Shown: positions 8,335 through 35,959, counted from the first letter of the stretch. The stretch is 64,000 nucleotides of DNA from Clostridia bacterium (GCA_017467265.1 JAFTSO010000050.1:11532-75531), one strand, 5' to 3'. Numbers and translations: made by a program. Notes: generated from the letters alone by a model not told the origin.

Positions 8335-11300
8335 ATGAGAAAAATAATGAAGAAAATATCCATCTTATGTCTTTCCGCGTTTATGGCGGCGTCCTCGGGC
8401 GTAGGTGCAGTATTCCACTCGGCGAGTGCGAACGAGAAATTGACGACCACCGTGAAAAACGGCGCTGCGACCAAGCCGACGTCCACGATGCTCTCGCAAA
8501 AGGAATACGACGTTGCTTTTGAAAAGGCAGAAGGACTGGACGTTTCGCAGCTGTTCATTGACAATTATAATCCCGAAGTGGTGTTGACGAACAAACTCCA
8601 ACCTGCTGAGGATTACGTTGCCGTAATCAACCTTGGCAAAGGTTCGCTGTCCGAACAGGCGGCAGAGAAAGGGCTTACCGTGGCAGAATTTGCAAAAACT
8701 GCCGCGGGGAAATCCGCTCGTAATAAGATCGGCAAAGAGCTCGATCAATTCGAGGACGAAGTAAAGGGCTTGGGGATTGATGCGGAAACGGTATATCGTT
8801 ACGATACGTTGACAAAAGGCGTTGCGATCCGTGCCAAGGGCGCAGATTTTGATAAAATCGCGTCGATTGTGGGCGTAGAAAGCGTGATCATGTCCGAACA
8901 CTACGCCGCACCGAAGGTATTGGAGATCTCCAACGATACCAACGTGTACGCAACGGGCATCTATAACACTTCGGAGATCGATCCTGCGTTGCGCGGCAAC
9001 GGCTCGGCGATCGCCGTGCTCGATACGGGTACGGACGTGCAGCACCCCGCTTTCCAAACGGACAATTTTTACGCGACGGAGTTTGCTCTGACGCGTGATG
9101 AAATCGCGGAAAGATTGCAGTACACCAAAGCGGTGGAATTTGACGACGAAGCGAGCATTGAAAACGTGTATAAGAGTGAAAAACTCCCATTCGCGTTCGA
9201 CTATGCGGATAAAGATTCCAACGTATATCCTGCGTACTCATCCCACGGTTTGCACGTTGCAGGTATTATCGCAGGGAACTATACGGAAGTGGAAGAAGAC
9301 ATTGTCAATTCCGATCCCGATTTGAAGTTTGAATACGACGAAGAGAAGGAAACGCATTATTTTGAAGGTGTTGTACCCGATGCGCAGATCGTCACGATGA
9401 AGGTATTCACGGACAACGTGGACGACGAAGCACTGGGTGGTGCGGAAACAGAGAATATTCTGGCGGCACTCGAAGACGCAGTCACTATCGGCGTGGACGT
9501 TATCAATATGTCGCTCGGTTCGTCCGCAGGGTTCTCTTCCTACGTGGACGAATATATGGAAAAGGTGTACACCGCGATCGAAAACGCAGGCATCAGCCTT
9601 GTGTGCGCGGCGAGCAACGACTATTCGTCGGGCTATGGTGGTGAAAACGGTACGAACTTGACCTCCGATCCCGACTCCGCAACGGTAGGCTCGCCCTCGA
9701 CGTATCACGCGGCGATCTCCGTGGCGAGTATCAACGGTCAGAAAGATCCGTATATGTTGGCGCAAGACGACATTATGGTATTCTTTACCGAGGCAACGGA
9801 CGGTAACTCCAACAAAATGGATTTCGTGGGGGATATCTTCACGGGATTAAAGGCAGAAGGCAAGATGCCCACCGCATCGGAAACGACCGAATTGCAGTAC
9901 GTCGTTATCCCCGGCTTGGGTAGAAGCTATAACTATTCGGCAAATATCCGTAGCAAATTGCAATCCCAGCCGAGTATTGCGCTGGTACAGCGTGGTACGA
10001 CGACGTTCGAAGAGAAAATGAAGATCGCCAAGGAAAACGGCGCGATCGGTATTATGATCTACAACAACGTTGCCGGCAAGATCAGCATGACGATGGGTGC
10101 AAAAAACAAGTCGGATATTATTCCCAGCTGTTCGATCACAATGGATATCGGAAACCAAATGGTATCGGCGGCGGTAGATTCGGTCGGTAAGATCGTTTTG
10201 AACAAAGCGTTCTTGTCCGGTCCGTTTATGAGTGATTTCTCGTCGTGGGGACCCACGCCGTCCTTGGAATTGAAACCAGAAATAACGGCGTACGGCGGCA
10301 ACGTCACGTCGTCGGTTGCAGGCGGCTACGACGTATATAGTGGTACGAGTATGGCAACGCCGAATATGGCGGGTGCGGTGGCGATTATCCGTACGCACTT
10401 AAAGAAAACGTATCCCGATATGACGGCACAGGAACTCGCAGCGCGTACTTATCAACTGATGATGAGTACGGCAGGGATTGTGTTGAACGAATACGGCGAT
10501 CCGTACAGCCCCAGAAAGCAGGGCGCAGGTATCGCAAATATCGAGGCGGCACTCGCTTCGCAATCGTATATCACCGTGCTGGACAAAGACGGTAACGTAT
10601 CGCCCAAGAGTAAGATTGAGCTTGGCGACGATCCTGACCGTACGGGCGTTTACGAATTTGAATTTACGATCAACAACGCGTCCAAAGAATTTGCACGCTA
10701 CGAGCTGGGCTGGTATGTAATGACGGAAACGGTATCGTCCGACGGCAAGACGGTTGCGGAAAAGAGCAACGTGTTGGACGATGCGAAAGTGGACGTTTGG
10801 GTAAACGGCAAAGCAACTTCGCAAAAACAAGTGATGATCGCTGGGGAATCGACGGCGCAGATCAAGATGAAAATTACGCTCTCCGACGCGAACAAAGCGT
10901 TCTTGGATAAGTATTTTGTCAACGGTATGTACGTGGAAGGTTTCGCGACGTTGCGCCAGAGTGCAACGGGCTTGGAAAGCGGCGAGATGCACGATTTGAC
11001 GTTGCCTTTCCTTGCGTTCTACGGCGACTGGACGGACGCGCCGATGCTCGATTATTCGATGTATGAAATCGCGGAGAACGAAGCGGACGACGCTATTCCC
11101 GACGATGAAAAATACGAGGTGAAATTCTTCTCGACGACTCCGTACAGCAAATACGGCGAAAAATATATTCTGCCGATGGGTATGTATCTGTACAACCTGC
11201 CCGATGACGCAGATCCTATCTATTCGTCCGAAGACAAAGCGTCGTTGTCCATCTACAACGAAGAATTCCATCAGACGGCATACGAATTCTATGCGGTATA

Positions 11301-14300
11301 TGCAGGCTTGATGCGCGGTATGGCAGTTTGCGAAGTGCAAATCGTCAACGAATACACGAGCGAAGTCGTTTGGCAGGAAACGCAAAAGAACGTAGCCAAA
11401 GGGTATGCAAACGGCGGTTCGACGCGTCCTGGGTTTATTGAAGTGGAATTTAACCCGTACGAGCTGAATTTGCCCAACAACACAAAATACCGTTTCTCGA
11501 TGGTCGGATATCTTGATTACGGCGACGGGAAACAGGGGAATAAGAATTCCTTCTCGTTCAGCTTTACGACGGACTATGAAAAGCCGACGTTGGTGGATGC
11601 AGGTCTTCGTTATGAAGAATATAAGAACGAAAAGGAAGAAATCCAGACGCGTGTATATCTCGATATTACCACGTTCGACAACAACTATACGCAGGCGATT
11701 TTGCTCTGCTACGTAGATCAGACGAACACGGTACAGCTGTTGACCGATTACATTACTCCCGTCTATTCGGATAGAAGGGGTCAAACGGTGACGACGTCGA
11801 TCGAGATTACCGATTATTACGAAGATTATTTTGATACGTTCTATTTGCAGGTCGAAGACTATGCAATGAACTACGATCTGTACGCGTTGACGCTGGATAA
11901 CGCGATTCTCTTCCCCGAACGCCTTTCGTTTGGTCAGGAAGAATTGCATTTGAATTTGTACGGCTCGGCAAAACCCGAAGTAACGGTGACGCCCAGCAGC
12001 GCACAGCGCTACGATCTCGTTTGGACGAGCAACGACGAAGACGTTGCGATCGTGAAAGACGGTGAAATCTATGCCAAGGGCGTAGGCGAAACGTATATCA
12101 CGGTATATGCGACGCGCGACGACGTTTTGCTCAAACCCAGCGCGAGAATTAAGGTAATCGTCACGGACGATACGGTGGAACTCCCCAAATATAAAGGGTT
12201 GAAATTTAATCTGATTAAGGATAAGAAGGAAACGGTGGTCAACCCCACGAACAGGACGGTGGAAGTTCACCCCAACGAATTTATTCAGCTGGAAGTAGTT
12301 TCCGAACCTTTCTATCTGCCTACGATGCAAGTAGAATGGAAGAGTTCCAACCCGTATATTGCTACCGTGGACGAAAACGGTATCGTGCATACGTTGCGCG
12401 AAGGCTCGTGTACGATCACGGCACAGCAGGTCAACGAAGACGGAACACTCGGGTTCTTCTCGGCAAATACGTATTTTAACGTAGGTCCTGAATTCGTTAT
12501 TAACAGCTATATTCTCGAAGAGTACCACGGTGCAGGCGGCGACGTCGTCGTACCCGAAGAGCTCAACTTTATGTACATCGACGAGGAATGTTTCAAAAAC
12601 AACAAGACGATCACCAGTTTCGTTGTTCCCGACGACGTAATGGAAATTTGGGAAGAGGCGTTCTACGGCTGTACGGCTCTCGAATATGTCAGCTTCCCGA
12701 AGAGTTTGACGCTCGTTCAGAAATCGGCGTTTGAGAACTGCAAAGCGCTGAAGACGGTGGACATGACCGACGCGTTGTCCGTGATTTTCTCCCACCGTGC
12801 GTTCTACGGCTGTACGTCGCTGGAAGAAATTGTGAACGACGAGCGATTGACGGCGATTTGGGATTATACTTTTGCAAACTGTTCGTCTTTGAAGAGCTTG
12901 AACATCTCTAATCTCGTGCAGGTAGGCGAATACGCGTTCTCTGGCTGTACGGGTCTGGAAGACATCACCGTGTCCAAATATACGATGATCGGCGAAGGTA
13001 TGTTCTACGGCTGCTCGGGGCTCAAGGAAGTGACCGTGCCTGCGGAATATATCGGCGAAAATGCGTTCTACGCTTGTAGCAATCTGGAAAAGGTAGTGCT
13101 CAACGGCAACACCGTCGTAGGGGAGAGTGCTTTCCGTGGCTGCGTGGCGCTTCGTCATTTGTATATGCCAGGCAGAATTTACGAGATCCGCGAACGTGCC
13201 TTTGAAGGGTGTACGGCGATGCGTATTCTCGTATTGCCCAACTGCGAAGTAGCAATCGGCAAAAATGCGTTCTACCGTTGTACCGGTTTGGCGACGGTAG
13301 GCGTGCGTGAACAGACGTCGCTGAACTTTGGCGAAGCGTTCCGCGATTGCAGCGCATTGAAAAATCTTGGCTATGCGACGTTGACGTATTCGGAAGAGAG
13401 CGGCTATGCAAATTCGTTCGATCCTAGCATTACGGAAACGGAGCATTACACGATCGAAGATAACGTTATCTATAACAAAGCAAAAACGGCGATCATGTTC
13501 GTTCCGTCGGCGACGACGGAGATCACGTTGCCCGATACGATCGAAACAATCGGTGCAGGCGCGTTCTACGGCAAGAGCTTGCTCACGTCCGTCACGCTGC
13601 CCGACGGGTTAAAGGAAATCGGCGATTATGCGTTCTCCTATACGGGGATCACGTCCGTCGAAATCCCTGTCGGTGTGACAAAACTGGGTGAGGGTGCATT
13701 CTCGTACTGCTATAGCCTGACGGAAGTGAAATTCGCGGAAGACAGCCAGTTGACGGAGATTCCCGAAGGTTGCTTTAACAGCGCGTTCGAGCTGGAAAGC
13801 ATCGCGCTGCCGAAGAGCGTGACGTATGTTGGCGATTATGCGTTCGGTGCGAGTGCGCTCTCCACGGTGTATGCGCTGGGCGAGACGGCAACGGCGAACA
13901 CGTTTAGTGGGGAACAGCTGTCCTTGACGGACATCGGCGAAGGCGCGTTCAGTAGCTGTAAATTACAAAAGATTATTTTGCCTACAACGTTGGAAACGCT
14001 GGGTGTCAGCGCGTTTGCGCTCAACCCGTTGCTGTTGGAAGTATATTTCCGTTCCAACGTGCAGATGGGCGAAGCGGTATTCTTTGATTCGACGAATCTC
14101 GAAAGGGTAGAATTCTTTGACGAAATGACGTCGGTGGGCGATTACACGTTTGCATCGACGGCAGGGCAGCACGGTTTGCGTTACGTCACGTTGCCTTCCG
14201 CGCTGACGAAGATCGGTGAATATACCTTCTCAAACTGTTTCAATCTGGAAACGTTGACGATCCCCGATACGGTCACCTACGTTGGTGATTATGCGTTCTA

Positions 14301-15861
14301 CGGCTGTTCGTCGCTGAACGACGTGGCTTTGGAGAACGTAGTATGGATAGGCGGCTATGCGTTTACGGGTACGCAGGCGTTTAAGTCGGCTAGCCTGCCC
14401 AACGTACAGTCGATCGGCGATTATGCGTTCTATCAGAGTAATATTCAGACGATTTCCGTGCCCGTGCTCGTGCACGTAGGCGAAGGTGGTATCGCGTATA
14501 CGAAGTTGGAGTGGCTGGATCTGCCCGAAACGTTGCTTTCGGTAGGACCTGGTGCGTTCCATTACAATTTCTATCTCGACGGTATCCGTATCGAAGACAA
14601 CGGCGTATTCTTTATCGATCCGTTGACGGACGACGGCTATGGCGTTATCTACTCCTACCGCGACAACGGAAAATATCAACTCGAAGGTTACCCCGGTGGT
14701 AATCCTGCGAGAGAATACACCATTCTCGAAGGGACGGAGCGTGTCGGCGAAATGGCGTTCACGGGTGCGAATACGTTGTATTCCATCTACGCGCCCAACT
14801 CGTTGAAGACGATCGGCGACAAAGCGTTCTACGACTGTGCTGCAATGGATTATAATTTCCTTAGCGTCAATGCGCCGAATTTGGAAACGAGATATATCGA
14901 CGGTGGTATGTACGAACCCGATTCTTGGATGTATGAAGTATTTTCAAGGGACGGTCAGTACGCAGACGAACGTTTCTATGCGAACTTCTATTACTACGCG
15001 ATGTTCCTGTATTACGGGCTCTACCCGTACGGCACGAGCTACGGCTTAATGCTCACCTATCCCACCAACGCGGTTGGCTATGACGAGTTCATTTGGTCGT
15101 GTTTCTTCCAAGATATTTATTATACGGACGATACCATCGACGAAACGACGATGGCGGCGGTAGAGGCGGTAAGAGCGCTGCCTTCGCTCGAAGAGATCAA
15201 TGCGTTGATCGCGGCGGTCGATCAAGAATCGGCGGCGGCGCGTGCAGAAGAGATCACCGAGCTTTTGAAAACGGCGCGTACTCTGTACAACAATATCGTC
15301 AGCGAAACGCAGCTCGCGTTCTTCAACGGCGACTTTGACGGCACCGATTACCTTGCCGAGCTTTCTGCAAGGGAAATGGCGATGCGTCCCGTGAAAGATC
15401 ATTACGGTATCTTGACGACGGTCGTATCCATCACGTTGATTTCCACGCCTGACAAGATGACCTACTATGCAGGCGAAGAGATCGACACGACGGGTATGGT
15501 AATCGAGGCGACCTACGACGACGGTACGACGGCGATTGTTGAAGATTATGAACTCTCGACATACGTGGCTAGCGTGACGGGCGGTAGAATTACCGTTTCG
15601 TACGGCGGCAAGACGACGTCCTTCCGTATCACCGTCAAGGCGGCGGAAGAAAAACCTGAGCCCCCCGAAGAATCGGAATCTGAATCGGAATCTTCCGAAG
15701 ACTCCGAATCGATCGTGGATTCGTCCGAAACCCCGAGCGCAGCTGGTAAGAAAAACGGCTGCAAGGGCGTAGGCATCGGGCTGGGCATCGGTATCCCTGT
15801 AGTAGCGCTTGGCGCGGTAGCAATCTTTGTGATGTTGAAAAAGAAGAAAGGAGGCAAATAA
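8335..15861 (+). CDS. Second giant S8 serine peptidase (paralog of the first): S8 with PA insert, Fn3-like motif, two Big_2-like domains, BspA-type LRR array, Ig-like domain, Ser/Glu linker and C-terminal TM anchor
   Basis: 2508-codon ORF with AGGAGG 8 nt upstream. Signal peptide (SILCLSAFMAASSGVGAVFHSASA). Triad motifs AVLDTGTD (D230), HGLHVAG (H304) and GTSMATP (S672). PA-like block (ALVQRGTTTFEEKMKIAKENGAIGIMIYN). YVEGFATL...LPFLAFYGDW motif. Big_2-like segments (VTPSSAQRYDLVWTSNDEDVAIV; VEWKSSNPYIATVDENG). C-terminal hydrophobic helix followed by KKKKGGK. Confidence 0.9.
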   Translation: MRKIMKKISILCLSAFMAASSGVGAVFHSASANEKLTTTVKNGAATKPTSTMLSQKEYDVAFEKAEGLDVSQLFIDNYNPEVVLTNKLQPAEDYVAVINLGKGSLSEQAAEKGLTVAEFAKTAAGKSARNKIGKELDQFEDEVKGLGIDAETVYRYDTLTKGVAIRAKGADFDKIASIVGVESVIMSEHYAAPKVLEISNDTNVYATGIYNTSEIDPALRGNGSAIAVLDTGTDVQHPAFQTDNFYATEFALTRDEIAERLQYTKAVEFDDEASIENVYKSEKLPFAFDYADKDSNVYPAYSSHGLHVAGIIAGNYTEVEEDIVNSDPDLKFEYDEEKETHYFEGVVPDAQIVTMKVFTDNVDDEALGGAETENILAALEDAVTIGVDVINMSLGSSAGFSSYVDEYMEKVYTAIENAGISLVCAASNDYSSGYGGENGTNLTSDPDSATVGSPSTYHAAISVASINGQKDPYMLAQDDIMVFFTEATDGNSNKMDFVGDIFTGLKAEGKMPTASETTELQYVVIPGLGRSYNYSANIRSKLQSQPSIALVQRGTTTFEEKMKIAKENGAIGIMIYNNVAGKISMTMGAKNKSDIIPSCSITMDIGNQMVSAAVDSVGKIVLNKAFLSGPFMSDFSSWGPTPSLELKPEITAYGGNVTSSVAGGYDVYSGTSMATPNMAGAVAIIRTHLKKTYPDMTAQELAARTYQLMMSTAGIVLNEYGDPYSPRKQGAGIANIEAALASQSYITVLDKDGNVSPKSKIELGDDPDRTGVYEFEFTINNASKEFARYELGWYVMTETVSSDGKTVAEKSNVLDDAKVDVWVNGKATSQKQVMIAGESTAQIKMKITLSDANKAFLDKYFVNGMYVEGFATLRQSATGLESGEMHDLTLPFLAFYGDWTDAPMLDYSMYEIAENEADDAIPDDEKYEVKFFSTTPYSKYGEKYILPMGMYLYNLPDDADPIYSSEDKASLSIYNEEFHQTAYEFYAVYAGLMRGMAVCEVQIVNEYTSEVVWQETQKNVAKGYANGGSTRPGFIEVEFNPYELNLPNNTKYRFSMVGYLDYGDGKQGNKNSFSFSFTTDYEKPTLVDAGLRYEEYKNEKEEIQTRVYLDITTFDNNYTQAILLCYVDQTNTVQLLTDYITPVYSDRRGQTVTTSIEITDYYEDYFDTFYLQVEDYAMNYDLYALTLDNAILFPERLSFGQEELHLNLYGSAKPEVTVTPSSAQRYDLVWTSNDEDVAIVKDGEIYAKGVGETYITVYATRDDVLLKPSARIKVIVTDDTVELPKYKGLKFNLIKDKKETVVNPTNRTVEVHPNEFIQLEVVSEPFYLPTMQVEWKSSNPYIATVDENGIVHTLREGSCTITAQQVNEDGTLGFFSANTYFNVGPEFVINSYILEEYHGAGGDVVVPEELNFMYIDEECFKNNKTITSFVVPDDVMEIWEEAFYGCTALEYVSFPKSLTLVQKSAFENCKALKTVDMTDALSVIFSHRAFYGCTSLEEIVNDERLTAIWDYTFANCSSLKSLNISNLVQVGEYAFSGCTGLEDITVSKYTMIGEGMFYGCSGLKEVTVPAEYIGENAFYACSNLEKVVLNGNTVVGESAFRGCVALRHLYMPGRIYEIRERAFEGCTAMRILVLPNCEVAIGKNAFYRCTGLATVGVREQTSLNFGEAFRDCSALKNLGYATLTYSEESGYANSFDPSITETEHYTIEDNVIYNKAKTAIMFVPSATTEITLPDTIETIGAGAFYGKSLLTSVTLPDGLKEIGDYAFSYTGITSVEIPVGVTKLGEGAFSYCYSLTEVKFAEDSQLTEIPEGCFNSAFELESIALPKSVTYVGDYAFGASALSTVYALGETATANTFSGEQLSLTDIGEGAFSSCKLQKIILPTTLETLGVSAFALNPLLLEVYFRSNVQMGEAVFFDSTNLERVEFFDEMTSVGDYTFASTAGQHGLRYVTLPSALTKIGEYTFSNCFNLETLTIPDTVTYVGDYAFYGCSSLNDVALENVVWIGGYAFTGTQAFKSASLPNVQSIGDYAFYQSNIQTISVPVLVHVGEGGIAYTKLEWLDLPETLLSVGPGAFHYNFYLDGIRIEDNGVFFIDPLTDDGYGVIYSYRDNGKYQLEGYPGGNPAREYTILEGTERVGEMAFTGANTLYSIYAPNSLKTIGDKAFYDCAAMDYNFLSVNAPNLETRYIDGGMYEPDSWMYEVFSRDGQYADERFYANFYYYAMFLYYGLYPYGTSYGLMLTYPTNAVGYDEFIWSCFFQDIYYTDDTIDETTMAAVEAVRALPSLEEINALIAAVDQESAAARAEEITELLKTARTLYNNIVSETQLAFFNGDFDGTDYLAELSAREMAMRPVKDHYGILTTVVSITLISTPDKMTYYAGEEIDTTGMVIEATYDDGTTAIVEDYELSTYVASVTGGRITVSYGGKTTSFRITVKAAEEKPEPPEESESESESSEDSESIVDSSETPSAAGKKNGCKGVGIGLGIGIPVVALGAVAIFVMLKKKKGGK
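12520..14880 (+). repeat. BspA-type LRR array inside the second protease (approximate bounds)
   Basis: About 790 aa of reiterated 'xxAFxGCxxLxxVxLPxxVxxIG' units (e.g. IWEEAFYGCTALEYVSFP, IGAGAFYGKSLLTSVTLP). Confidence 0.75.
15736..15858 (+). other. C-terminal tripartite signal of protease 2: AGKKNGCKG motif, hydrophobic helix, basic tail
   Basis: Translation SAAGKKNGCKGVGIGLGIGIPVVALGAVAIFVMLKKKKGGK. The Cys codon is at 15760-15762, 32 residues from the C-terminus, and is preceded by an (ES)n-rich linker. No LPXTG. Confidence 0.6.
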
Positions 15862-16559
15862 TGAATAAGATGAAAAAAATTCTGACGGTCATACTCGCTT
15901 TCTTTACGTTGCTATTATTTGGTGCGTGCGGTACTACGGACAGCCAAGTCCCTGCGGATTATTCCGTTTGCGTGACCTATCATTTTAATGGCGGCAAAAT
16001 GGAAAAATACGACGACGCGACGCAGTTGACGGTGTTTTACAAGCCGCAATCGCTCATCGCAGAGCCGGGTGTGACGACCAAAGAGCTGGAAGAAGTAAAA
16101 CGTAGCGGTTGCTTTGCGGCAGGTTGGTACTATGCAAAAACAGATGAAACGGGTGCGATTGTCCTCGATAACGAGGGCAATCCGATCCCCGGGGACGTAG
16201 CCTTTGATTTTAAGAACGAAGTGGTCACCAAGGACATTACGCTCGTGATCAAATGGAGTGAAAAAATCAAGGTTATCTTCAAGAATCTTTACTCGACGCA
16301 GACCAAAGAATATACCAAGGATTACGAATCGGGCGACGCGTTCAAACGCCCCGGTCTTGAAACCTCGGCAAAGGGCGGCAAGGTAGAGAATTACTACTGG
16401 TCGTACGATGCGGCAACGGATACGTATTCGGATATGATTGTGTTTGGCTCGCTCACGTATGACGACTTGAAGGCGCAGGTAGGGGAAAACCCTGAAAAAG
16501 ACGGTGAATACACGATTTTGTACGTTTACGTAAAGATCGTGCCGGAAACGGAAGAATAA
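15861..16559 (+). CDS. Small lipoprotein with a Listeria-Bacteroides (Flg_new-type) repeat-like segment
   Basis: The start overlaps the protease-2 stop (TAATG), and AAAGGAGG lies upstream. Signal peptide with lipobox LLFGAC. Segment VTYHFNGGKM...CFAAGWYYAKTDETG resembles the repeat family also present in the third protease. Confidence 0.8.
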   Translation: MNKMKKILTVILAFFTLLLFGACGTTDSQVPADYSVCVTYHFNGGKMEKYDDATQLTVFYKPQSLIAEPGVTTKELEEVKRSGCFAAGWYYAKTDETGAIVLDNEGNPIPGDVAFDFKNEVVTKDITLVIKWSEKIKVIFKNLYSTQTKEYTKDYESGDAFKRPGLETSAKGGKVENYYWSYDAATDTYSDMIVFGSLTYDDLKAQVGENPEKDGEYTILYVYVKIVPETEE

Positions 16560-16581: not shown

Positions 16582-19371
16582 ATGGTGAAATTTTTACGCG
16601 GAAAACACTTTTTCGCAAAAGCATTGTCGGCAATTCTCGCATTGACTTTCAGCTTTTCGGTGGTGGCGTGCGGCGGCGGTAGCTCCGGTTCGACGGACAA
16701 TAGTAGTAGCGGCAACAGCAGCGCTTCCAACCCGACGTCCAATTCCAGCTCGGAAGAAACGCCCCCTGAAAAAGAGAAAATCTACGATAACGAAAAAATG
16801 CCCGTCACCTTCTCCGTAGGGGAACTCGACGGCGTATTCAATCCTTTTTACTCCACGTCGGCGTACGACGGTGAAATCGTAGGGATGACGCAGATCAGTA
16901 TGCTCGGTTCTGACGCGTTTGGCGGCGTGGCTTACGGCCGCGACGAGGCTGTTATGACGTTGGATATGACGCAAACGATGTACGATGAAAACGGCAACGT
17001 CACCTCCGACGGCTCGTCCGAAGGTACGACCGTGTACGAGTTCTTGATCAAGAACGGCGTAAAGGACAGTCAGGGTTATCCGATTACGGTCGATGATATT
17101 CTCTTTAATATGTACGTATATCTCGATCCCGTTTACAATGGTTCTTCGACGATGTATTCGACCAAGATTCAGGGGTTGAACGCGTACAAGACGGGTAAAG
17201 AAACGGGTGACGAGGACGACGTAGGCGGTATGAACACGACGGCGCTTGCGAACGCACGTGCGACTATCGTTAATATGGTACTGTACGCGAACGCAACGTA
17301 TTTGCCTGATCAGTATCAGCACGCGTTCACGAACGAGCAGATCGCAGAATTTGAAACGTATATCGAAAAACTGTATTCGTTCTTTGAGAATATGCTCTCT
17401 ACCGATTGGAACGGCTGTGCGAACAGTATGGAAACGGCACAGGAAAACTATATTCTGGTGGACGGCGAAGATTACCGTGTCAACAAGGAAAACCCCAGAA
17501 CGTACGAAATCTCCAAGGTTTGGGAATATTTCTGCGTTTCGGAAGGTCTTTGCCAGTACGTTGAAATTAACGATAGTGAAAAGACGGACGAAGAAAAGCC
17601 CCGTTATTACGTGATCGTGGATACGGGTATCCAGAACGATATCGAGCAGGCGATCGAAGGCTTGACGAACGCGGAAGAAATTCTTGAAGCGGAAAAGAAT
17701 ATCTGTTTCGAAGCAATGCGCGACGAATATAAGAATTACGGCAAAGTGGAAACGCTGTGTTACGGGTTCTCGGTAGGCAACGAATTGCTCGAATATTTGA
17801 AGGGCGTTGAGCTGGAAAAATTGACGGCGGCATCCGACGCGATCAAGAGTATCAGCGGTATCACAACGTCGCAGACAAAGGAATTCAACGGCGTCACGTA
17901 CGCGGAAACGCACGACGTTTTGAAAATCGTCATCGACGGCGTTGACCCCAAGGCAATCTGGAACTTCGCATTTACAGTTGCTCCTATGCGCTATTATGCA
18001 AGTGAAGAACAGATCAACCTGTTCGACGGCGAAGAACACTTCGGCTTGGTAAAGAGCTCTATTTCCTATCGTGACAACTACTTGAAGAACGTAGAACGTA
18101 TGGGCTTGCCCATCGGCGGCGGCGCGTACATGGCAAGCTCGCCCAACGGTACGCCTGCGAACAAGAGAACGGATTTCCGCAACAAGAACGTTGTATATTA
18201 TCAGCGCAACCCGTATTTCTACACAATCGGTATCGACTCGCCTACGGCAACGCAAGCCGATTATGAAAAGAGCGCGGAAGAGGCAGATACGCCTATTCAC
18301 AACGCAAAGATCAAATATCTGCGTTATCAGGTCGTTTCATCGTCCAACGTTATGGACGCGATGATCGCAAAAGAAATCGATTACAGCTCGGAAATCTCTG
18401 CAAAACAGGCGACGATCAACCAGCTGAACCATTATAGCTATCTCGACTATGCTCGTCAGCCGAATAACGGTTATGGGTATATCGGTTTGAACGCGAAGTA
18501 CGTACAGGATATCGAAGTTCGTCGTTTGATTATGTACGTTATGGACCGTAGTATGATTACGGACAGCTACTACACCGACGGTTTGGGTAGCATCATCGAA
18601 CGTCCTATGACGACCAACTCTTGGGCATATCCCGAAGACGCAACGACGTACTATACGCAGGACTGGTTTATTAAGCATTATCAGGAAACGTACGGTATCA
18701 CGTTGCAGAAAGTAGCGGATACGTCGCAGTTCGTAGAGAACGCATTGAAGGCGCTCGGCTATCAAAAATCGGGCGGCGTTTACCAGAAGAAACTCGCTGA
18801 TAACAAGACGATTTCAAAACTGGATTATACTTTCACGATTGCAGGCGACACGAAAGACCACCCTGCATATTCGGTATTCGCTTTGGCAGCGGAAGACCTG
18901 AACAAAGCAGGTATGAGCATCGACGTTAAGACGGACGCACAGGCACTTTCCAAGCTTTCCAACGGTCAGCTTGCCGTTTGGGCGGCAGCTTGGGGCAGCG
19001 CAATCGACCCCGACCTGTATCAGGTATATCATAAGTATTCGCAGGCAACCAGCGTCAACAACTGGGGCTATTCCACGATTTTGGACAGCAATAACAACAA
19101 ACTGTACGCAGCAGAATTGAACATCATTGACAAACTCTCCAAAGACATCGATTTGGCGCGTGCAACGCTCGATCAGGACGTTCGTGCGGATATTTACGCA
19201 GAAGCGCTCGATTATATTATGGAACTCGCAGTAGAACTTCCTACCTATCAAAGAGTAAACCTGTTGGTGTACAATTCTTCGAAAATTGATCCTGCGTCCT
19301 TGACGCCGAAGAGTGATTTGACCGCATATAGAGGATTGATCGAAAACATTTGGGAACTCGATCTGCTCTAA
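16582..19371 (+). CDS. ABC transporter substrate-binding lipoprotein, family 5 (Opp/Dpp/Nik-type), unusually long at 929 aa
   Basis: Lipobox SVVAC followed by a Ser/Gly/Asn-rich tether. Family-5 core blocks (FNPFYSTSAYDGEIVGMTQISML; YEFLIKNGVKDSQGYPITVDDILFNMYVYLDP; GYGYIGLNAKY; DPDLYQVYH). A large extra segment sits between the first core blocks and the 'VLKIVIDGVDPKAIWNFAF' block. Confidence 0.85.
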   Translation: MVKFLRGKHFFAKALSAILALTFSFSVVACGGGSSGSTDNSSSGNSSASNPTSNSSSEETPPEKEKIYDNEKMPVTFSVGELDGVFNPFYSTSAYDGEIVGMTQISMLGSDAFGGVAYGRDEAVMTLDMTQTMYDENGNVTSDGSSEGTTVYEFLIKNGVKDSQGYPITVDDILFNMYVYLDPVYNGSSTMYSTKIQGLNAYKTGKETGDEDDVGGMNTTALANARATIVNMVLYANATYLPDQYQHAFTNEQIAEFETYIEKLYSFFENMLSTDWNGCANSMETAQENYILVDGEDYRVNKENPRTYEISKVWEYFCVSEGLCQYVEINDSEKTDEEKPRYYVIVDTGIQNDIEQAIEGLTNAEEILEAEKNICFEAMRDEYKNYGKVETLCYGFSVGNELLEYLKGVELEKLTAASDAIKSISGITTSQTKEFNGVTYAETHDVLKIVIDGVDPKAIWNFAFTVAPMRYYASEEQINLFDGEEHFGLVKSSISYRDNYLKNVERMGLPIGGGAYMASSPNGTPANKRTDFRNKNVVYYQRNPYFYTIGIDSPTATQADYEKSAEEADTPIHNAKIKYLRYQVVSSSNVMDAMIAKEIDYSSEISAKQATINQLNHYSYLDYARQPNNGYGYIGLNAKYVQDIEVRRLIMYVMDRSMITDSYYTDGLGSIIERPMTTNSWAYPEDATTYYTQDWFIKHYQETYGITLQKVADTSQFVENALKALGYQKSGGVYQKKLADNKTISKLDYTFTIAGDTKDHPAYSVFALAAEDLNKAGMSIDVKTDAQALSKLSNGQLAVWAAAWGSAIDPDLYQVYHKYSQATSVNNWGYSTILDSNNNKLYAAELNIIDKLSKDIDLARATLDQDVRADIYAEALDYIMELAVELPTYQRVNLLVYNSSKIDPASLTPKSDLTAYRGLIENIWELDLL

Positions 19372-19384
19372 GGAAGGACGAAAA

Positions 19385-19412
19385 CCGAGGCAAGGAGAAA
19401 ACCTTGCCTCGG
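19385..19412 (+). promoter_or_regulatory. Intercistronic stem-loop directly after the binding-protein gene (11-bp perfect stem, 6-nt loop, no T-run)
   Basis: ccgaggcaagg-agaaaa-ccttgcctcgg is followed by gaaaaaagg, not a U-tract. It lies between the SBP stop (19371) and the permease start (19432). Confidence 0.6.
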
Positions 19413-19431
19413 GAAAAAAGGAAGATGATTT

Positions 19432-20430
19432 ATGGTTAAATACATAGTAAAAAGATTGCTGATGTCGATTTTGATCTTGTTCGGCGTATCGATTAGTATT
19501 TATTTCTTGGTTCTCTTGATGCCGACAGACTTTGTCGATCAAAAATTTGCCTCGCAGATCGCGCAAGGCACGATGGACAAAGCCGCTATTCAAGAGATGA
19601 AGGAAAAATACGCCTTGGCGGACAAATCGTTTGTGGGCATCCTGAAAGGCTATACCAAATGGCTGGGTGGCGTATGCACGGGGGATTTGGGCAGATCGTT
19701 CAAATACGACGCTCCCGTTACGACCGTCATCGTAGAAAATATGGGCATTTCGTTCGGGATCTCCTTTGTGGCACTCGTGTTGCAATTTGTAATCGCGATC
19801 CCCTTGGGGATCAAAGCGGCGTATCATCAATACGGTAAAATCGATTATACGGTGACCGTGTTGACGATGATGGGTATTTCGTTGCCTACTTTCTTCTTGG
19901 CAACGCTCTTGATTCAGGTGTTCTCAATCAATCTTGGCTGGTTCCCCGTAAACGGTTTGGTCACGGCGAATTTGCCCGTAGATACCACGCCGTTTATGCG
20001 GTTTATGGACGAAGTTTGGCATCTCGTTTTGCCGATGACGACGCTCGTAATCCTGTCCATCGGCGGTTTGATGCGCCACACCCGTACGAATATGCTGGAA
20101 GTGCTCAATGCCGATTATATCCGTACTGCAAGAGCGAAAGGCTTGTCTGAAAGAACGGTCGTGTATAAGCACGCGTTCAAGAACACGATGATTCCTATCG
20201 TCACGATGACGGCAGGGATTATCCCCAGCCTGTTCGGCGGTGCGATGATTACGGAAACGGTATTCGGTATCCCCGGTATTGGTAAAATGGCGTACGACGC
20301 CTTGAAACTCGGCGACGTTCCCTTCGTTATGGGATACAATATGTTCCTTGCTATCTTGACGGTAATCGGGACGTTGTTGTCCGATTTGATGTATATGGTC
20401 GTTGACCCTCGCGTCAAGCTGACGAAGTAA
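19432..20430 (+). CDS. ABC transporter permease, OppB/DppB-like
   Basis: N-terminus MVKYIVKRLLMSILILFGVSI is typical of the family. Multi-TM protein with the EAA-type loop region (ADYIRTARAKGLSERTVVYKHAFKN). Confidence 0.9.
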   Translation: MVKYIVKRLLMSILILFGVSISIYFLVLLMPTDFVDQKFASQIAQGTMDKAAIQEMKEKYALADKSFVGILKGYTKWLGGVCTGDLGRSFKYDAPVTTVIVENMGISFGISFVALVLQFVIAIPLGIKAAYHQYGKIDYTVTVLTMMGISLPTFFLATLLIQVFSINLGWFPVNGLVTANLPVDTTPFMRFMDEVWHLVLPMTTLVILSIGGLMRHTRTNMLEVLNADYIRTARAKGLSERTVVYKHAFKNTMIPIVTMTAGIIPSLFGGAMITETVFGIPGIGKMAYDALKLGDVPFVMGYNMFLAILTVIGTLLSDLMYMVVDPRVKLTK

Positions 20431-20442
20431 GGAGGTGCTGAA

Positions 20443-21510
20443 ATGGAAGAAGAAAAGAAGATGATAGAGGAGCAGGCTGCTCCCGTACAACAGGAAACGA
20501 AGGAAGAAGGATTCCTTGCAGATAATATCCGTGTCCTTTCGCCTGGGAAACTCGTCGCAAGACGTTTTTTCCGTTCCCGTTTGTCCATCGTTGGTTTGGT
20601 GGTGATTCTGTCGCTGTTCTTGATCTCGTTCATTGGGCCTATTTTCTCGCGTTGGGGCGAGAAAACGCAGGATCTTTCGGGCGGCGCGGCGATCCACGGC
20701 GTCACGGGCTTTGAATTCAAAGTGCCTGATAGCGACGAAGTTATCCACGCGTATATTGAAACGATTTCCTATCCGCAGTTGAATAAAAACCAAACGTCGC
20801 CTTCTGCCGATCATTGGCTGGGTACGGACGATATGGGTATGGACATTTTTACCCGACTTATGTACGGCGGACGTATTTCGTTGACGCTGGGCTTTATCGT
20901 TATCATACTCGAAACAATCATAGGTATTATCCTAGGCGGTTTGGCAGGGTATTTCGGAAAATGGGTAGATAACATCATTATGCGTATCGTTGATATTTTG
21001 AGCTGTATTCCGTCGTTGCCGATCATGCTGATCATCAGCGTTGTTTTGGATTCGAACGGCGTACCGGGGCGATACAAAATCTATTATATGATGGTCATGA
21101 TGACGGCGCTAGGCTGGTCAGGTATAGCTCGTCTTGTTCGCGGTCAGATCCTTATGCTGCGAGAGCAGGAATATATGGTGGCGGCAGAGGCGTGCGGTAT
21201 TCCCGTAAGACAGCAGATTTTCAAGCATCTCGTTCCGAATATTATGCCGCAGCTGATCGTGACGATGACGTTGGGCTTGGGTTCGATTATTTTGACGGAA
21301 GCAACGCTGAGTTTCTTAGGCTTGGGCGTAGAATATCCCAGCGCGTCGTGGGGCACGATGATCGAAGCGGGCGCAAATCCCGACGTTTTGCGTAGCGGCT
21401 ATTGGAATATGTGGATTCCTGCGGGTATATGTATCGTTTTGGCGGTACTCGCGTTCAACTTTATCGGCGACGGATTGCGTGACGCGTTCGACCCGAAAAT
21501 GAAGAGGTGA
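20443..21510 (+). CDS. ABC transporter permease, OppC/DppC-like
   Basis: Multi-TM protein with the motif HWLGTDDMGMDIFTRLMYGGRISL and the EAA-type loop MVAAEACGIPVRQQIFKHLVPN. GGAGG lies upstream. Confidence 0.9.
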   Translation: MEEEKKMIEEQAAPVQQETKEEGFLADNIRVLSPGKLVARRFFRSRLSIVGLVVILSLFLISFIGPIFSRWGEKTQDLSGGAAIHGVTGFEFKVPDSDEVIHAYIETISYPQLNKNQTSPSADHWLGTDDMGMDIFTRLMYGGRISLTLGFIVIILETIIGIILGGLAGYFGKWVDNIIMRIVDILSCIPSLPIMLIISVVLDSNGVPGRYKIYYMMVMMTALGWSGIARLVRGQILMLREQEYMVAAEACGIPVRQQIFKHLVPNIMPQLIVTMTLGLGSIILTEATLSFLGLGVEYPSASWGTMIEAGANPDVLRSGYWNMWIPAGICIVLAVLAFNFIGDGLRDAFDPKMKR

Positions 21511-21516
21511 TCGGAA

Positions 21517-22833
21517 ATGGCGGAAAATAAACACGTGCATCGCATTAGCGCCAAGGAATTGCGCGCAACAGCGAAGCAAAATATAAAAATCACCAAGCGT
21601 TATGAAAAGCTGAAAAAACGTAAATATATCCCCGAGAGCGAATACGTGACGGAGATGAAAGACAGTAATAACGTTCTGGAAATCGAAAATTTACACACCT
21701 ATTTCTTTACGGACGTGGGTACGGTTAAGGCAGTCAACAGTGTTTCGTTCAACATACCGCAGGGGGCTACCGTCGGCATCGTCGGCGAGAGCGGCTGCGG
21801 TAAGAGCGTGACGTCGCTCTCGGTAATGGGCTTGGTACAAGGCCCTACTGGGCAGGTCGTTGACGGCGAAATCCGTTTTAAGAGCGAAGTGTTAAAGACG
21901 GACGAAAAAGGGAAATATATCCCCGTTTACGAGCTGGACGAAAACGGCGAGAAGATCGTGCTCTCCGAAAAGATTAACAAGCGTACGGGCGAAAAGATCG
22001 TCACGTACAAACAAAAACAGGACGAAACGGGCGGCTATATCTTTGAAAAAGAATCGAAAGTATATAATTTGGTGCGTGCGCCGAGAAGCGAGCTCGCCAA
22101 AATTCGCGGCAGAGAAATCGCGATGATTTTTCAAGAGCCGATGACTTCGCTCAATCCCGTGTTCACCATCGGACAGCAGCTCGACGAAGTGTACCTGCTG
22201 CACAATCCCGGCGTATCGAAAGAGGGTGCGAAAGCGCGTACGTACGATATGCTCAAACTGGTAGGGATTATCCCCGAAAACGTTTACACCCGTTATCCGC
22301 ACGAGTTGTCGGGCGGTATGAGACAAAGAGTCGTGATCGCGATGGCGTTGATGTGCAATCCGCGCCTGATCATCGGTGACGAGCCGACGACGGCGCTGGA
22401 CGTGACGATTCAGGCACAGATCTTGGAATTGTTGCGCGACATCAAAACGAAAATCAACGGTTCGATTATGCTCATCACGCACGATTTGGGCGTGATTGCG
22501 GAGATGGCGGATTTCGTCGTCGTTATGTACGCAGGCAGAGTGATCGAAACGGGTACGGCGATGGAGATTTTCTGCAATCCTTTGCACCCGTACACCATCG
22601 GTCTGCAAAAGAGCAAGCCCGTCGTGAACCAAAACAAAGAACGTCTGTACAGTATCCCCGGCAACGTTCCCAACCCCATCGAAATGCCTACGCATTGTTA
22701 TTTTAAGGACCGTTGCGATCGCGCTTGTGAAAAGTGCTCGGGCGAATACCCTGCATACGTGCAGGTATCTCCGACGCATACCGTAGCTTGCTATCTGTAT
22801 CAGGATCAGAAAAAGGAGGGAGCAGATGTCTAA
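21517..22833 (+). CDS. ABC transporter ATP-binding protein, OppD/DppD-like, with an N-terminal extension and an insertion after Walker A
   Basis: Walker A GESGCGKS, signature LSGGMRQR, Walker B LIIGDEPTTALD, H-loop ITHDL. About 55 extra N-terminal residues, plus an extra Lys/Glu-rich segment (KSEVLKTDEKGKYIPVYELDENGEKIV...) before the Q-loop (IAMIFQEP). Cys-rich C-terminal tail. GAGGTGA lies upstream of the ATG. Confidence 0.9.
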   Translation: MAENKHVHRISAKELRATAKQNIKITKRYEKLKKRKYIPESEYVTEMKDSNNVLEIENLHTYFFTDVGTVKAVNSVSFNIPQGATVGIVGESGCGKSVTSLSVMGLVQGPTGQVVDGEIRFKSEVLKTDEKGKYIPVYELDENGEKIVLSEKINKRTGEKIVTYKQKQDETGGYIFEKESKVYNLVRAPRSELAKIRGREIAMIFQEPMTSLNPVFTIGQQLDEVYLLHNPGVSKEGAKARTYDMLKLVGIIPENVYTRYPHELSGGMRQRVVIAMALMCNPRLIIGDEPTTALDVTIQAQILELLRDIKTKINGSIMLITHDLGVIAEMADFVVVMYAGRVIETGTAMEIFCNPLHPYTIGLQKSKPVVNQNKERLYSIPGNVPNPIEMPTHCYFKDRCDRACEKCSGEYPAYVQVSPTHTVACYLYQDQKKEGADV

Positions 22834-23881
22834 TCAAGTAGAAGAAATGCAAAACGAAGTCGCTCCTTCCGTAGCGGAACAGGCGACGGCAAATACGCCG
22901 ATTTTGGAAGTACATAACTTAAAGAAATACTTCCCCGTAGAATCGAACTTTTTCGGCAAACCGACGAGATATCTTCGCGCGGTGGACGACGTTTCGTTCA
23001 CGCTGCAAAGGGGTAAAACGATCGGTATCGTCGGGGAGTCGGGCTGCGGTAAAACGACGATGGGCAGAAGTATTTTGAAACTGCACGACATTACGGGCGG
23101 ACAGATTTTGTTCGACGGCGAAGATATTACGAAATACACGCGTTCGCAGATGCGTCCTTTCCGTAAGCGTATGCAGATCATTTTCCAAGATCCGTATTCT
23201 TCCCTGTCGCCACGATTGAACATCGGTGAAATCATCGGCGAAGCGGTGAAGGTGCACAACATTGTGCCTGCGAGCAAGCACAAGGAATACGTGCGCGAAA
23301 TTATGCAAAAATGCGGTCTGCAATCGCATTTCTACGATCGCTACCCGCACGAATTTTCAGGCGGTCAAAGACAGCGTATTTGTATTGCGAGAGCGATCGC
23401 TCTGCAACCGGAGCTGATCATCTGCGACGAGCCGGTGTCGGCACTCGACGTTTCGATACAGGCGCAGATTATCAACCTTTTGAAAGATATGCAAAAGGAA
23501 ATGAACATCGCATACGTGTTCATTTCGCACGACCTTTCGGTGGTCGAGCATATTTCGGACGAAATCGCGGTAATGTATCTGGGGAATATGGTGGAGAAAG
23601 GTCCGAAAACGAACATTTTCGCCAACCCGTTGCACCCTTATACGCAGGCGTTGTTCAGCGCGATCCCCAATCCCGATCCGCGAGTGAAAATGCACCGTCA
23701 GATTTTGAGAGGGGATATTCCCAGCCCGTCCAACCCGCCCTCGGGGTGTAAATTCCATACCCGTTGCGAAAAATGTATGGAGATCTGCAAAACGCAAGTC
23801 CCCGTTTCGCGCGAGGTAGAGCCCGAGCATTTCGTTGCTTGTCATTTGTATAACGACGCAAAGGGAAATGCCGATGAATAA
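22826..23881 (+). CDS. ABC transporter ATP-binding protein, OppF/DppF-like
   Basis: Walker A GESGCGKTT, signature FSGGQRQR, Walker B LIICDEPVSALD, H-loop ISHDL. Cys-rich C-terminal tail (CKFHTRCEKCMEICK...VACHLY). 8-nt overlap with the upstream ATPase gene. Confidence 0.9.
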   Translation: MSNQVEEMQNEVAPSVAEQATANTPILEVHNLKKYFPVESNFFGKPTRYLRAVDDVSFTLQRGKTIGIVGESGCGKTTMGRSILKLHDITGGQILFDGEDITKYTRSQMRPFRKRMQIIFQDPYSSLSPRLNIGEIIGEAVKVHNIVPASKHKEYVREIMQKCGLQSHFYDRYPHEFSGGQRQRICIARAIALQPELIICDEPVSALDVSIQAQIINLLKDMQKEMNIAYVFISHDLSVVEHISDEIAVMYLGNMVEKGPKTNIFANPLHPYTQALFSAIPNPDPRVKMHRQILRGDIPSPSNPPSGCKFHTRCEKCMEICKTQVPVSREVEPEHFVACHLYNDAKGNADE

Positions 23882-28752: not shown

Positions 28753-28784
28753 AAGCGCATATTTTGCAAACGAGGCAATTCTTT

Positions 28785-32256: not shown

Positions 32257-32931
32257 ATGTTCGGTGGAAAGAATATTCAAAAGAGATACGGAGCGCGCGA
32301 GGTATTGCGTGACGTGACGTTTGCGATAGAAACGAACAAGATCGTAGGTGTTTTCGGACTGAACGGCGCTGGGAAAACGACGTTGCTCCGTATTTTATCG
32401 GGGCTGGACGGGTATTACAAGGGCACGGTCTATAAGACGGATTTTGAAGATGTGGCGTATATGGCGGTGGAGAATATGTATCCGCCCGAGATGACGGTGA
32501 AAGGCTTGATCGAATTTTGCGCGACGTTCATGCCCAAACAGGACACGGCGAAGATTATGGAGCAGATACAAGAGCAGGGGATAAAACCCAAAAGTTTTCT
32601 GCGGAATTTATCGTCGGGTATGCGGCAATACGTAAAATTTCTGCTCACGGTGTACAGCGGCGCGAGCGTATGCCTGTTCGACGAGCCGCTGACGAATTTG
32701 GACGTCAATATGCGCGAAAGGATAATACAAACGCTGATTAGCGAGATCAACGAAGAGCGACTGTTCATCGTCACCACCCACGAAATCAAAGAGATCGAGC
32801 GGATTATCGACGGGTTTTACGTTTTGAAAAACGGAACGTTTTCGCCCTATTACGAGTGCGAACAAATCGTGGACGAAACGGGCGCGAGCGTCGAAGAATT
32901 TTATAAGGAGAAAGTCAATGCGAAAGAGTAA
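32257..32931 (+). CDS. ABC transporter ATP-binding protein (YtrB-like partner of the GntR regulator)
   Basis: Walker A GLNGAGKTT, signature LSSGMRQ, Walker B CLFDEPLTNLD. Confidence 0.85.
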   Translation: MFGGKNIQKRYGAREVLRDVTFAIETNKIVGVFGLNGAGKTTLLRILSGLDGYYKGTVYKTDFEDVAYMAVENMYPPEMTVKGLIEFCATFMPKQDTAKIMEQIQEQGIKPKSFLRNLSSGMRQYVKFLLTVYSGASVCLFDEPLTNLDVNMRERIIQTLISEINEERLFIVTTHEIKEIERIIDGFYVLKNGTFSPYYECEQIVDETGASVEEFYKEKVNAKE

Positions 32932-34877: not shown

Positions 34878-34945
34878 AAAACGCATTGATCGCGTGACGT
34901 GTAGGGCCTTTCGATAATTTTACGAAAAAAACAGGAGAGAAAATA

Positions 34946-35806: not shown

Positions 35807-35824
35807 CGTTTGCAAGGGGATAAA

Positions 35825-35861
35825 GACGAGCCGAATCGCGTGCGTGAGCGGCTCGTTTTTA
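35825..35861 (+). terminator. Rho-independent terminator
   Basis: gacgagccg...cggctcgt followed by tttt. Confidence 0.7.
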
Positions 35862-35923
35862 TCGGTGGCGACGATCACCTGAAAAAAGTGTAAAAATCGC
35901 AATGTTTTTTTGTGAAAAAACTA

Positions 35924-35952
35924 TTTACAAACGCCAAAAAATGGTTTATAAT
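35924..35952 (+). promoter_or_regulatory. Sigma-A-type promoter lying 7 nt upstream of the DMT gene ATG
   Basis: TTTACA - 17 nt - TATAAT, then tcttctc, then the ATG at 35960. Confidence 0.55.
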
Positions 35953-35959
35953 TCTTCTC

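Follow-up and report, generated by a model that had tools for sequence, protein, structure and literature searches.

A tripartite Gly-Cys tail at the C-termini of two secreted subtilases represents a candidate sorting signal family of gut Clostridia

Results and Discussion

Two secreted subtilases with a shared C-terminal tail

The stretch of Clostridia bacterium DNA analyzed here (GCA_017467265.1, JAFTSO010000050.1:11532-75531; 64,000 nucleotides, hereafter the window) encodes two very large secreted subtilases, protease 2 and protease 3, both of which end in a tripartite tail made up of a Gly-Cys motif, a hydrophobic helix, and a cluster of basic residues. Protease 2 (8335-15861, plus strand; 2508 aa) was delimited by open reading frame (ORF) calling and Pfam searches and is composed of an N-terminal Sec signal peptide, an S8 subtilase domain with a PA insert, Big_2, about nine BspA-type LRR_5 units, Big_3, a linker, and the tail. 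A protein identical to protease 2 is on record (P0001, "MAG Clostridia bacterium", GCA_017621575.1, contig JAGASW010000011.1; MAG, metagenome-assembled genome). Protease 3 (24214-28548, plus strand; 1444 aa), called in the same way, has a signal peptide, a mycosin-like S8 domain, LRR_5, a Flg_new repeat, a linker, and the tail, and exact look-ups of protease 3 and of the neighboring protease 1 returned no identical protein on record.

The last 42 codons of protease 2 (15736-15861, plus strand) translate as SAAGKKNGCKGVGIGLGIGIPVVALGAVAIFVMLKKKKGGK followed by a stop, exactly as quoted in an earlier note that had been made on this DNA from the sequence alone. Ahead of the tail lies a Glu/Ser/Pro-rich low-complexity linker (AAEEKPEPPEESESESESSEDSESIVDSSETPSAAG, residues 2436-2471; 15640-15747), which runs into the signature motif KKNGCKG (15748-15768), where Cys-2476 is encoded by TGC at 15760-15762. 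The motif is followed by a predicted transmembrane helix of 23 residues, detected as an uncharged stretch (VGIGLGIGIPVVALGAVAIFVML, 15769-15837), and by a predicted cytoplasmic basic tail, KKKKGGK, with a TAA stop (15838-15861), all on the plus strand. Protease 3 ends in GSAKKGGCGGTVWAAHGGLLAVCALGVLAGIFLRKKERR and a stop and is built along the same lines, also on the plus strand, with a Ser/Glu/Asp-rich linker (about residues 1337-1408; 28222-28437), the motif KKGGCGG (28438-28458; Cys-1413, codon TGT at 28450-28452), a predicted transmembrane helix that holds a second Cys at residue 1428 (TVWAAHGGLLAVCALGVLAGIFL, 28459-28527), and the basic tail RKKERR with its stop (28528-28548).

The presence of this tail at both protease ends is confirmed. 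The residue numbering leaves 32 and 31 residues after Cys-2476 and Cys-1413, respectively, in agreement with the earlier note, and the low-complexity linkers that it had described before both tails are there and are Ser/Glu/Asp-rich. Its claim that both tails begin with A-x-KK is correct for protease 2 (A-G-KK) but not for protease 3 (A-KK), and the core common to the two is KK-x-G-C-x-G, followed by a hydrophobic helix of about 23 residues and a Lys/Arg cluster. Overall, the two tails are only about 28% identical. A six-frame scan of the window for [KR][KR]xGCxG gave three matches, and a helix, a basic cluster, and a stop follow downstream in only two of them, those of proteases 2 and 3.

Conservation of the tail in homologs

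Homologs of protease 2 (n = 120) were chosen by their passenger and not by their tail. About 36 of them end in G-C-x-[GSA] followed by a helix and a basic cluster, frequently with the Gly-Cys doubled to GCxGC; most of the others carry a plain "GL[PS]xGAI" helix anchor, and a few have no helix. A true LPXTG was found in none of the 120, and in no tail of this passenger-selected set was the small-residue motif present with the Cys replaced by another residue. Among the nine closest homologs (57-83% identity), eight have the G-C at the same place despite divergence of the remaining tail, which reads KKGCRSVIS, GVGCKGAGCNSVV, KKKGCGGGCKSVV, MGCTGSIAL, and others. The protease 3 ortholog at locus L016 (L016:5774-10093), which is 55.5% identical over its full length, ends in EKKGCGSSLGFGAIGMLAIACAVVFKKKED (EKKGCGSSLGFG...KKKED). 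The earlier note had set loss of the Cys from orthologs, beforehand, as grounds for giving up a role for this residue; the Cys is kept in these eight of nine protease 2 homologs and in the protease 3 ortholog. In an alignment of 35 tails (A1), the Cys is invariant and is preceded by Gly in at least 90% of the tails.

The plain anchors (P0012-P0120) share a recurring start, (N/G)GL[PS]xGAI[VI]GI, and about half of them run on after KKKK into acidic cytoplasmic extensions of 20-50 residues. Possibly they make up another tail type in its own right, exchanged for the Gly-Cys tail from one homolog to the next. Separately, some Gly-Cys-tailed proteins have lipoprotein-like signal peptides (TLGAC, ALGAC, and LMGC; L006:2714-10111, L009:227-2632, and L017:3279-6113) and might therefore have a membrane attachment at each end.

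The tail family in protein databases and genomes

When the A1 profile was searched against 1.84 billion representative proteins (E ≤ 1e-3), 135 proteins were matched, with nearly all matches ending at the last residue of the protein. The Gly-Cys stands at the same position in 131 of the 135, and the distance from the Cys to the end is mostly 27-29 residues. Relative to the Cys (position 0, 131/131), Gly occupies position -1 in 128 of the 131 tails, and both counts are partly circular because these columns are in the profile. Further along, position +1 is Gly in 89, +2 is Ser in 102, +4 is Ile, Val, or Leu in 121, and +7 is Gly in 85 of the 131. The resulting family consensus is (E)KK-G-C-G-S-[SAV]-[IVL]-x-x-G, about 18-20 hydrophobic residues, and (K/R)KK(K)ED directly before the stop. 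This consensus is not dominated by A1 itself, and the GS[SAV][IVL], +7 Gly, and KKKED features of the profile-found tails are not circular. The passengers are varied and include Big_2, Flg_new, Cadherin_4, and Laminin_G_3 domains or no known domain at all.

The top match to the profile, P0121 (1026 aa; 52.8 bits), was discarded as a false positive: it is a repeat protein in which 12 internal repeats (e.g., ...DDNGCKAYASYEV...) match profile positions 6-21 only. Word-index searches gave no match with the 45-aa tail alone and only 14 tiny fragments with an alignment of 108 tails.

Each GTDB species was also represented by a single genome (596 Gb in all) in a scan with the pattern [EP]KKGCGS[ASV][ILV][TSG], which was taken from an 8-tail alignment, the 48-tail alignment being too variable for a genome scan. 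The pattern was matched 69 times, compared with about 12 times expected by chance according to our own estimate, which assumes uniform codon usage. All 26 confirmed loci are from gut or fecal Clostridia MAGs (Eubacteriales, Oscillospiraceae, "Lachnospiraceae", Candidatus Scatosoma, and Anaerotruncus sp.). The match is the extreme C-terminus in 26 of 26, and every ORF whose 5' end is included begins with a signal peptide. Five genomes have two matches each, 11 further Gly-Cys tails occur in the flanks of these loci, and tail genes stand in tandem in four of them (three genes each in L014 and L024, two each in L009 and L017). When the flanks were surveyed, irrespective of Cys, for secreted ORFs with a terminal helix and basic tail, eight were found besides the seeds, and each of them has G-C at the junction. 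Another 16 loci of the same anatomy came from a scan of metagenomes, for a total of 42 related loci. The sporulation genes YabQ and SpoIIE adjoin some of the tail loci, which fits endospore-forming, monoderm Firmicutes. Within the tandem arrays (L014:7365-12736, L024:1350-7283, L009:227-5808, and L017:319-6113), the tails differ in detail between copies.

The codons of the KKGCGS motif vary synonymously (GGC/GGT/GGA for Gly, TGC/TGT for Cys, TCN and AGC for Ser). It is thus the peptide that is under selection, with conservation at the protein level; a DNA-level cause, such as a conserved terminator or a recombination site, is ruled out by these freely varying positions. The tail is more than a local oddity. 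It is portable across unrelated passengers, occurs in several copies per genome, and always lies at the extreme C-terminus. The interpretation given in the earlier note is partly supported. These tails form a large Clostridial family for which NCBIfam and Pfam have no model, and the 42 codons in the window encode a divergent member of it.

Comparison with known C-terminal signals

Sortase acting on LPXTG is the textbook route by which Gram-positive bacteria attach their surface proteins, and the Cys-type C-terminal signals (MYXO-, JDVT-, Synerg-, and CGP-CTERM) have been recognized only recently. We compared the tails with NCBIfam release 20 (June 2026) and Pfam, in which no model covers the Gly-Cys tail family. 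Full-text literature searches (Firmicu-CTERM, "GCGS" sorting, and invariant-cysteine C-terminal sorting in Clostridia) likewise returned no description of this tail in Firmicutes. The comparison with sorting-domain models, which the earlier note had asked for, gave no match to Firmicu-CTERM, Synerg-CTERM, JDVT-CTERM, GlyGly-CTERM, or LPXTG, and for Firmicu-CTERM (TIGR04145) and GlyGly-CTERM, this holds even at E ≤ 10. The window tails reached 14.7 bits against GVDTG_CTERM (NF058571; cut-off, 29) and 9.1 bits against PEP_CTERM (cut-off, 16), and the best GVDTG_CTERM score over all tails scanned was 18 bits against the same cut-off of 29. The marginal matches of canonical tails to LPXTG_anchor, Rumino_NPXTG, GG_III-CTERM, and similar models covered the helix and basic half only.

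As far as its sequence can tell, the Gly-Cys family is closest to MYXO-CTERM and is not a member of it. Both are tripartite signals at the extreme C-terminus of secreted surface proteins, with many substrates per genome and an invariant Cys after Gly. MYXO-CTERM often has a doubled GCxGC, is restricted to Myxococcota and Bradymonadales (Haft 2023, bioRxiv 10.1101/2023.06.07.544157), and has been shown experimentally to be cleaved in a Cys-dependent manner by the CPBP protease MrtX (Guo, Haft & Wall 2025, PMC11980579). The doubling is frequent in the Gly-Cys family as well, while each window tail has a single G-C before the helix. In contrast to MYXO-CTERM, the hosts here are monoderm Clostridia without an outer membrane or a type II secretion step, Lys rather than Arg predominates at the basic end (KKKED), and there is an additional conserved GS[SAV][IVL]xxG. 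The window and the flanks of the related loci yielded no cognate myxosortase (core model NF040914). Only 5 of 35 tails match MYXO-CTERM at E ≤ 10. Three Arg-rich relatives pass the 20-bit cut-off of TIGR03901.2 (P0100, 31.3 bits; P0008, 22.1 bits; P0023, 21.7 bits), and P0008 also passes TIGR03382 (27 bits; cut-off, 15.85).

Of the other Cys-bearing tripartite signals, Synerg-CTERM/MrtS, JDVT-CTERM/MrtJ, and CGP-CTERM/MrtA (Haft 2023), Synerg-CTERM resembles the tails in having a Gly/Ser-rich cluster that ends in Cys directly before the helix. However, the best tail score against its model (TIGR04564) is 13.5 bits (cut-off, 22.5), and the family has no counterpart to the invariant Pro in the Leu-rich Synerg helix. 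The best score against JDVT-CTERM (NF033191) is 13.4 bits (cut-off, 27), and the tails differ from it in having neither a DP motif before the helix nor an adjacent CPBP gene. CGP-CTERM has an invariant Gly-Pro directly after the Cys and archaeal hosts (Thermococcales), whereas the tails have G/K and then S/G at this point and occur in bacteria. All three signals are found in host taxa other than those of the tails.

The tails share a Gram-positive host group, a similar length, and a helix with a KRKEE-like ending with LPXTG signals, and LPXTG-anchored S8 surface proteases do occur in other Firmicutes (e.g., the SGO_0316 family, the best NCBIfam match of protease 2). In the tails, however, Gly-Cys takes the place of the LPXTG/NPXTG pentapeptide, which is absent from both window tails. 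Scores reach 21.1 bits for TIGR01167 (LPXTG_anchor; cut-off, 15.9; helix and basic half only), 20 bits for Rumino_NPXTG (NF033846; cut-off, 23.5), and 16.5 bits for PF00746 (Gram_pos_anchor; cut-off, 20). The rhombosortase signal GlyGly-CTERM resembles the tails in that a motif of small residues caps the helix on its outer side and a basic cluster follows, but it requires no Cys, and its model does not match the tails. Finally, the N-terminal lipobox processed by Lgt and LspA likewise puts Gly/Ala-Cys at the outer membrane interface beside a single helix, and other genes of this locus use that route (lipobox-like LLFGAC in the gene at 15861 and VVACGG in that at 16582). The topology is mirrored, however, with the Cys of the tail lying ahead of a C-terminal helix, and positions -3/-2 are Lys/Gly here and Leu-Ala/Ser in a lipobox.

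The tails of P0100, P0008, P0023, and EPEESKKKGGCGSSVALGMVGALTAAGAALVIKKRKED are above MYXO-CTERM or TIGR01167 cut-offs, although they contain no LPXTG and are not myxobacterial. Since Clostridial tails can exceed these cut-offs, automatic annotation could mislabel them.

Sorting signal or membrane anchor

Taken together, these features lead us to propose, in a reading that we consider evenly balanced between right and wrong, that the tail is a C-terminal sorting and anchoring signal of secreted subtilases in which the Cys is lipidated and the helix is clipped off by a CPBP/Rce1-type protease. The signal peptide is predicted to route the protein through Sec, and the helix with its Lys/Arg cluster would then act as a stop-transfer sequence, so that the C-terminus would be held in the cytoplasmic membrane with the Gly-Cys at the outer interface. 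By analogy with the four known Cys-type signals, all of which are paired with CPBP/Rce1-type proteases (Haft 2023, bioRxiv 10.1101/2023.06.07.544157), the Cys thiol might next be lipid-modified, and an intramembrane protease might remove the helix and basic tail. That enzyme would be a CPBP/Rce1-type, "myxosortase-like" protein encoded elsewhere, again following the precedent of MYXO-, JDVT-, Synerg-, and CGP-CTERM. In a monoderm cell, the C-terminal lipid would keep the mature protease on the outside of the membrane, beside an Opp-type peptide importer that is encoded between the two tailed proteases. Lipidation of the Cys and removal of the tail, the steps that we infer wholly from this analogy, are plausible.

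Somewhat more tentatively, the family may constitute a fifth Cys-type sorting system and the first in monoderm bacteria, in which gut Clostridia would lipidate the Gly-Cys and clip the helix with a dedicated protease, thereby displaying proteases, adhesins, and other large surface proteins in place of the sortase/LPXTG route. If so, a Gly-Cys family in gut and rumen Clostridia would extend the Cys-type class to monoderm cells and would set a concrete search target, its cognate enzyme. Since the family occurs on many kinds of large surface proteins, it would also give annotators a new model for tails that today go unannotated or may trip the LPXTG_anchor or MYXO-CTERM cut-offs.

Cytoplasmic extensions distinguish the tail types. 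More than 15 residues follow the helix in none of 34 Gly-Cys tails versus 36 of 74 plain helix tails from the same protein family (Fisher p = 3e-8), with some plain tails carrying acidic extensions of 40-50 residues. The absence of an extension suggests that the Gly-Cys tail is a recognized sorting unit and not a passive anchor. A fixed length from Cys to end, a G-C at the interface, a conserved helix top, portability, and multiple copies per genome are all to be expected of a substrate that an enzyme recognizes and are not needed by a passive anchor. The argument that the Cys is meaningful because it is rare was dropped, as the leucine-rich repeat units of these proteins contain many Cys.

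Several results weigh against the proposal of a processed sorting signal, in addition to the circularity of the Gly and Cys counts. About two thirds of the distant protease 2 homologs (36-39% identity) carry plain helix anchors, so a helix alone suffices to anchor such proteases. The window tails have no MYXO-CTERM match at E ≤ 1, and to our knowledge all four known Cys-type systems belong to diderm bacteria or archaea. On a canonical-tail hidden Markov model (HMM) built from 48 tails, none of them from the window, the window tails score 16.5 and 17.8 bits, which makes them weak members that overlap with plain helix tails (up to 20.8 bits); canonical tails score 25-44 bits. Lastly, searches of the 64-kb window, of roughly 10 kb past its 3' end, and of the 42 related loci turned up neither a sortase nor a rhomboid gene and no recurrent CPBP gene.

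The search for an enzyme combined all-against-all ORF clustering of the 26 genome loci and the window, helix counts from hydropathy, regular expressions for TLxTC and the CPBP triad, and Pfam and NCBIfam searches on polytopic neighbors. It yielded only synteny of close relatives, transporters, sporulation proteins (YabQ and SpoIIE), and one generic CPBP. This sole CPBP/Rce1-like (PF02517) gene (L022:8952-10052, in the Oscillospiraceae MAG SIG681) lies 8.5 kb from a tail gene, which is about the chance expectation; no specific myxosortase model passed, and only generic or other models were matched, far below their cut-offs. Housekeeping sorting enzymes are usually not adjacent to their substrates (Haft 2023, bioRxiv 10.1101/2023.06.07.544157), and a missing neighbor enzyme is therefore weak evidence.

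Some of these results are what a passive type-I membrane anchor, never removed, would lead one to expect, with the Gly-Cys kept for acylation without cleavage, for packing against a partner, or for thiol chemistry at the surface. In homologs of the same architecture, a plain helix replaces the Gly-Cys tail in about two thirds; no processing enzyme was found to be encoded nearby; and the canonical HMM gives the window tails no higher scores than plain anchors. We nevertheless judge this explanation to be less likely, as it does not account for a G-C that is invariant in unrelated proteins and always equally far from the helix, the strict lack of a cytoplasmic extension, the narrow 27-29-residue span from Cys to end, or the family-wide GS[SAV][IVL]xxG and KKKED. 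The suggestion in the earlier note that the tail may be more than a passive anchor is borne out in one respect, the conserved, tripartite, portable module with an invariant Gly-Cys at the extreme C-terminus, and weakened in another, the plain helices of most distant homologs.

With regard to the low HMM scores, membership of the window tails in the family does not depend on score alone but on orthology to canonical-tailed proteins (P0002 and the L016 protein), the retained KK-x-G-C-x-G, and the architecture taken together. P0002, which is 83% identical to protease 2, scores 44.1 bits on the canonical HMM, and in silico replacement of the Cys by Ala lowers the score by 5-7 bits. As a family criterion, we propose a G-C directly before a single helix, a Lys/Arg cluster, an end 24-40 residues after the Cys, and an N-terminal signal peptide; all of these are present in both window proteins and in the canonical-tailed orthologs.

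A substrate of a rhomboid or rhombosortase, for which G-C-G-S-S at the helix top would be the site of an intramembrane serine protease whose cleavage releases the protein or transfers it to a lipid, is improbable. The motif is indeed Gly/Ser-rich, often with another Gly ahead of it, and its architecture is that of GlyGly-CTERM (Haft 2023), but GlyGly-CTERM was not matched in the NCBIfam scans even at E ≤ 10, small residues alone cannot explain an invariant Cys, and there is no rhomboid gene in the loci examined.

Still less probable, in our estimation, is a non-canonical sortase signal, with K-x-G-C|G-S taking the role of L-P-x-T|G and a specialized sortase attaching the protein to the cell wall. 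In their helix and KKKED ending, the tails are like LPXTG-type signals, and this half gives sub-threshold to marginal matches to TIGR01167, Rumino_NPXTG, and PF00746; the Gly at +1 (89/131) corresponds to the P1' Gly of LPXTG; and with LPXTG absent from all 120 homologs, this lineage must anchor these proteases in another way. However, the model matches never cover the motif itself, and no ORF with a TLxTC motif occurs in any flank. All sortase motifs that we know of have Pro at P3 and Thr, Ala, or Asn at P1.

A chance resemblance of the two window anchors, to which their roughly 28% identity and short shared motif might point, has a negligible probability and is already refuted, as the motif turns up again in the same place in orthologs, in 131 of the 135 profile-found proteins, and in the scans of genomes and metagenomes.

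Gene neighborhood of the tailed proteases

An Opp-type peptide ABC importer is encoded between the two tailed proteases (16582-23881, plus strand) and consists of a 929-aa SBP_bac_5 lipoprotein, two permeases, and two ATPases. The order of a protease 2 homolog followed by genes for a substrate-binding protein, a permease, and ATPases recurs in L006, the closest named relative locus (Candidatus Scatosoma), and in L016, ATPases are followed by the protease 3 ortholog. Because the order of protease and importer recurs in both, the locus reads as a unit for extracellular proteolysis and peptide uptake, in which the importer is the likely consumer of peptides released by the tethered proteases. For this locus, the sorting-signal proposal predicts two giant subtilases tethered beside a peptide importer that uses their products.

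Protease 1 (17-8320, plus strand; 2767 aa) has S8, PA, fn3_5, and LRR_5 domains and ends in ...EKYCGEKA, without a C-terminal helix or Gly-Cys tail. Its signal peptide ends in a lipobox-like FAVAC, and from these sequences protease 1 may be tethered by an N-terminal lipid and its two neighbors by their C-terminal tails. The gene that follows protease 2 (15861-16559, plus strand) has an ATG that overlaps the protease 2 TAA by one base (TAATG) and encodes a 232-aa putative lipoprotein (LLFGAC) without a Pfam or NCBIfam family. The SBP_bac_5 lipoprotein of the importer (16582-19371, plus strand; lipobox-like VVACGG) is unusually long at 929 aa.

Just after protease 3, a gene at 28764-31637 (plus strand) encodes a fused ABC_tran and FtsX (MacB-like) protein. 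Half-size exporters with ABC_membrane and ABC_tran domains adjoin Gly-Cys-tail genes at other loci (L004:10673-14381; L037:56-2377 and 4490-8178; L039:4473-6767), and the presence of ABC transporters beside several such genes is probably a coincidence. Further downstream in the window, at 32257-36883 (plus strand), an ABC ATPase gene is followed by four ORFs of 286-380 aa without a Pfam or NCBIfam match, two of which are polytopic, with 6 and 9 predicted helices.

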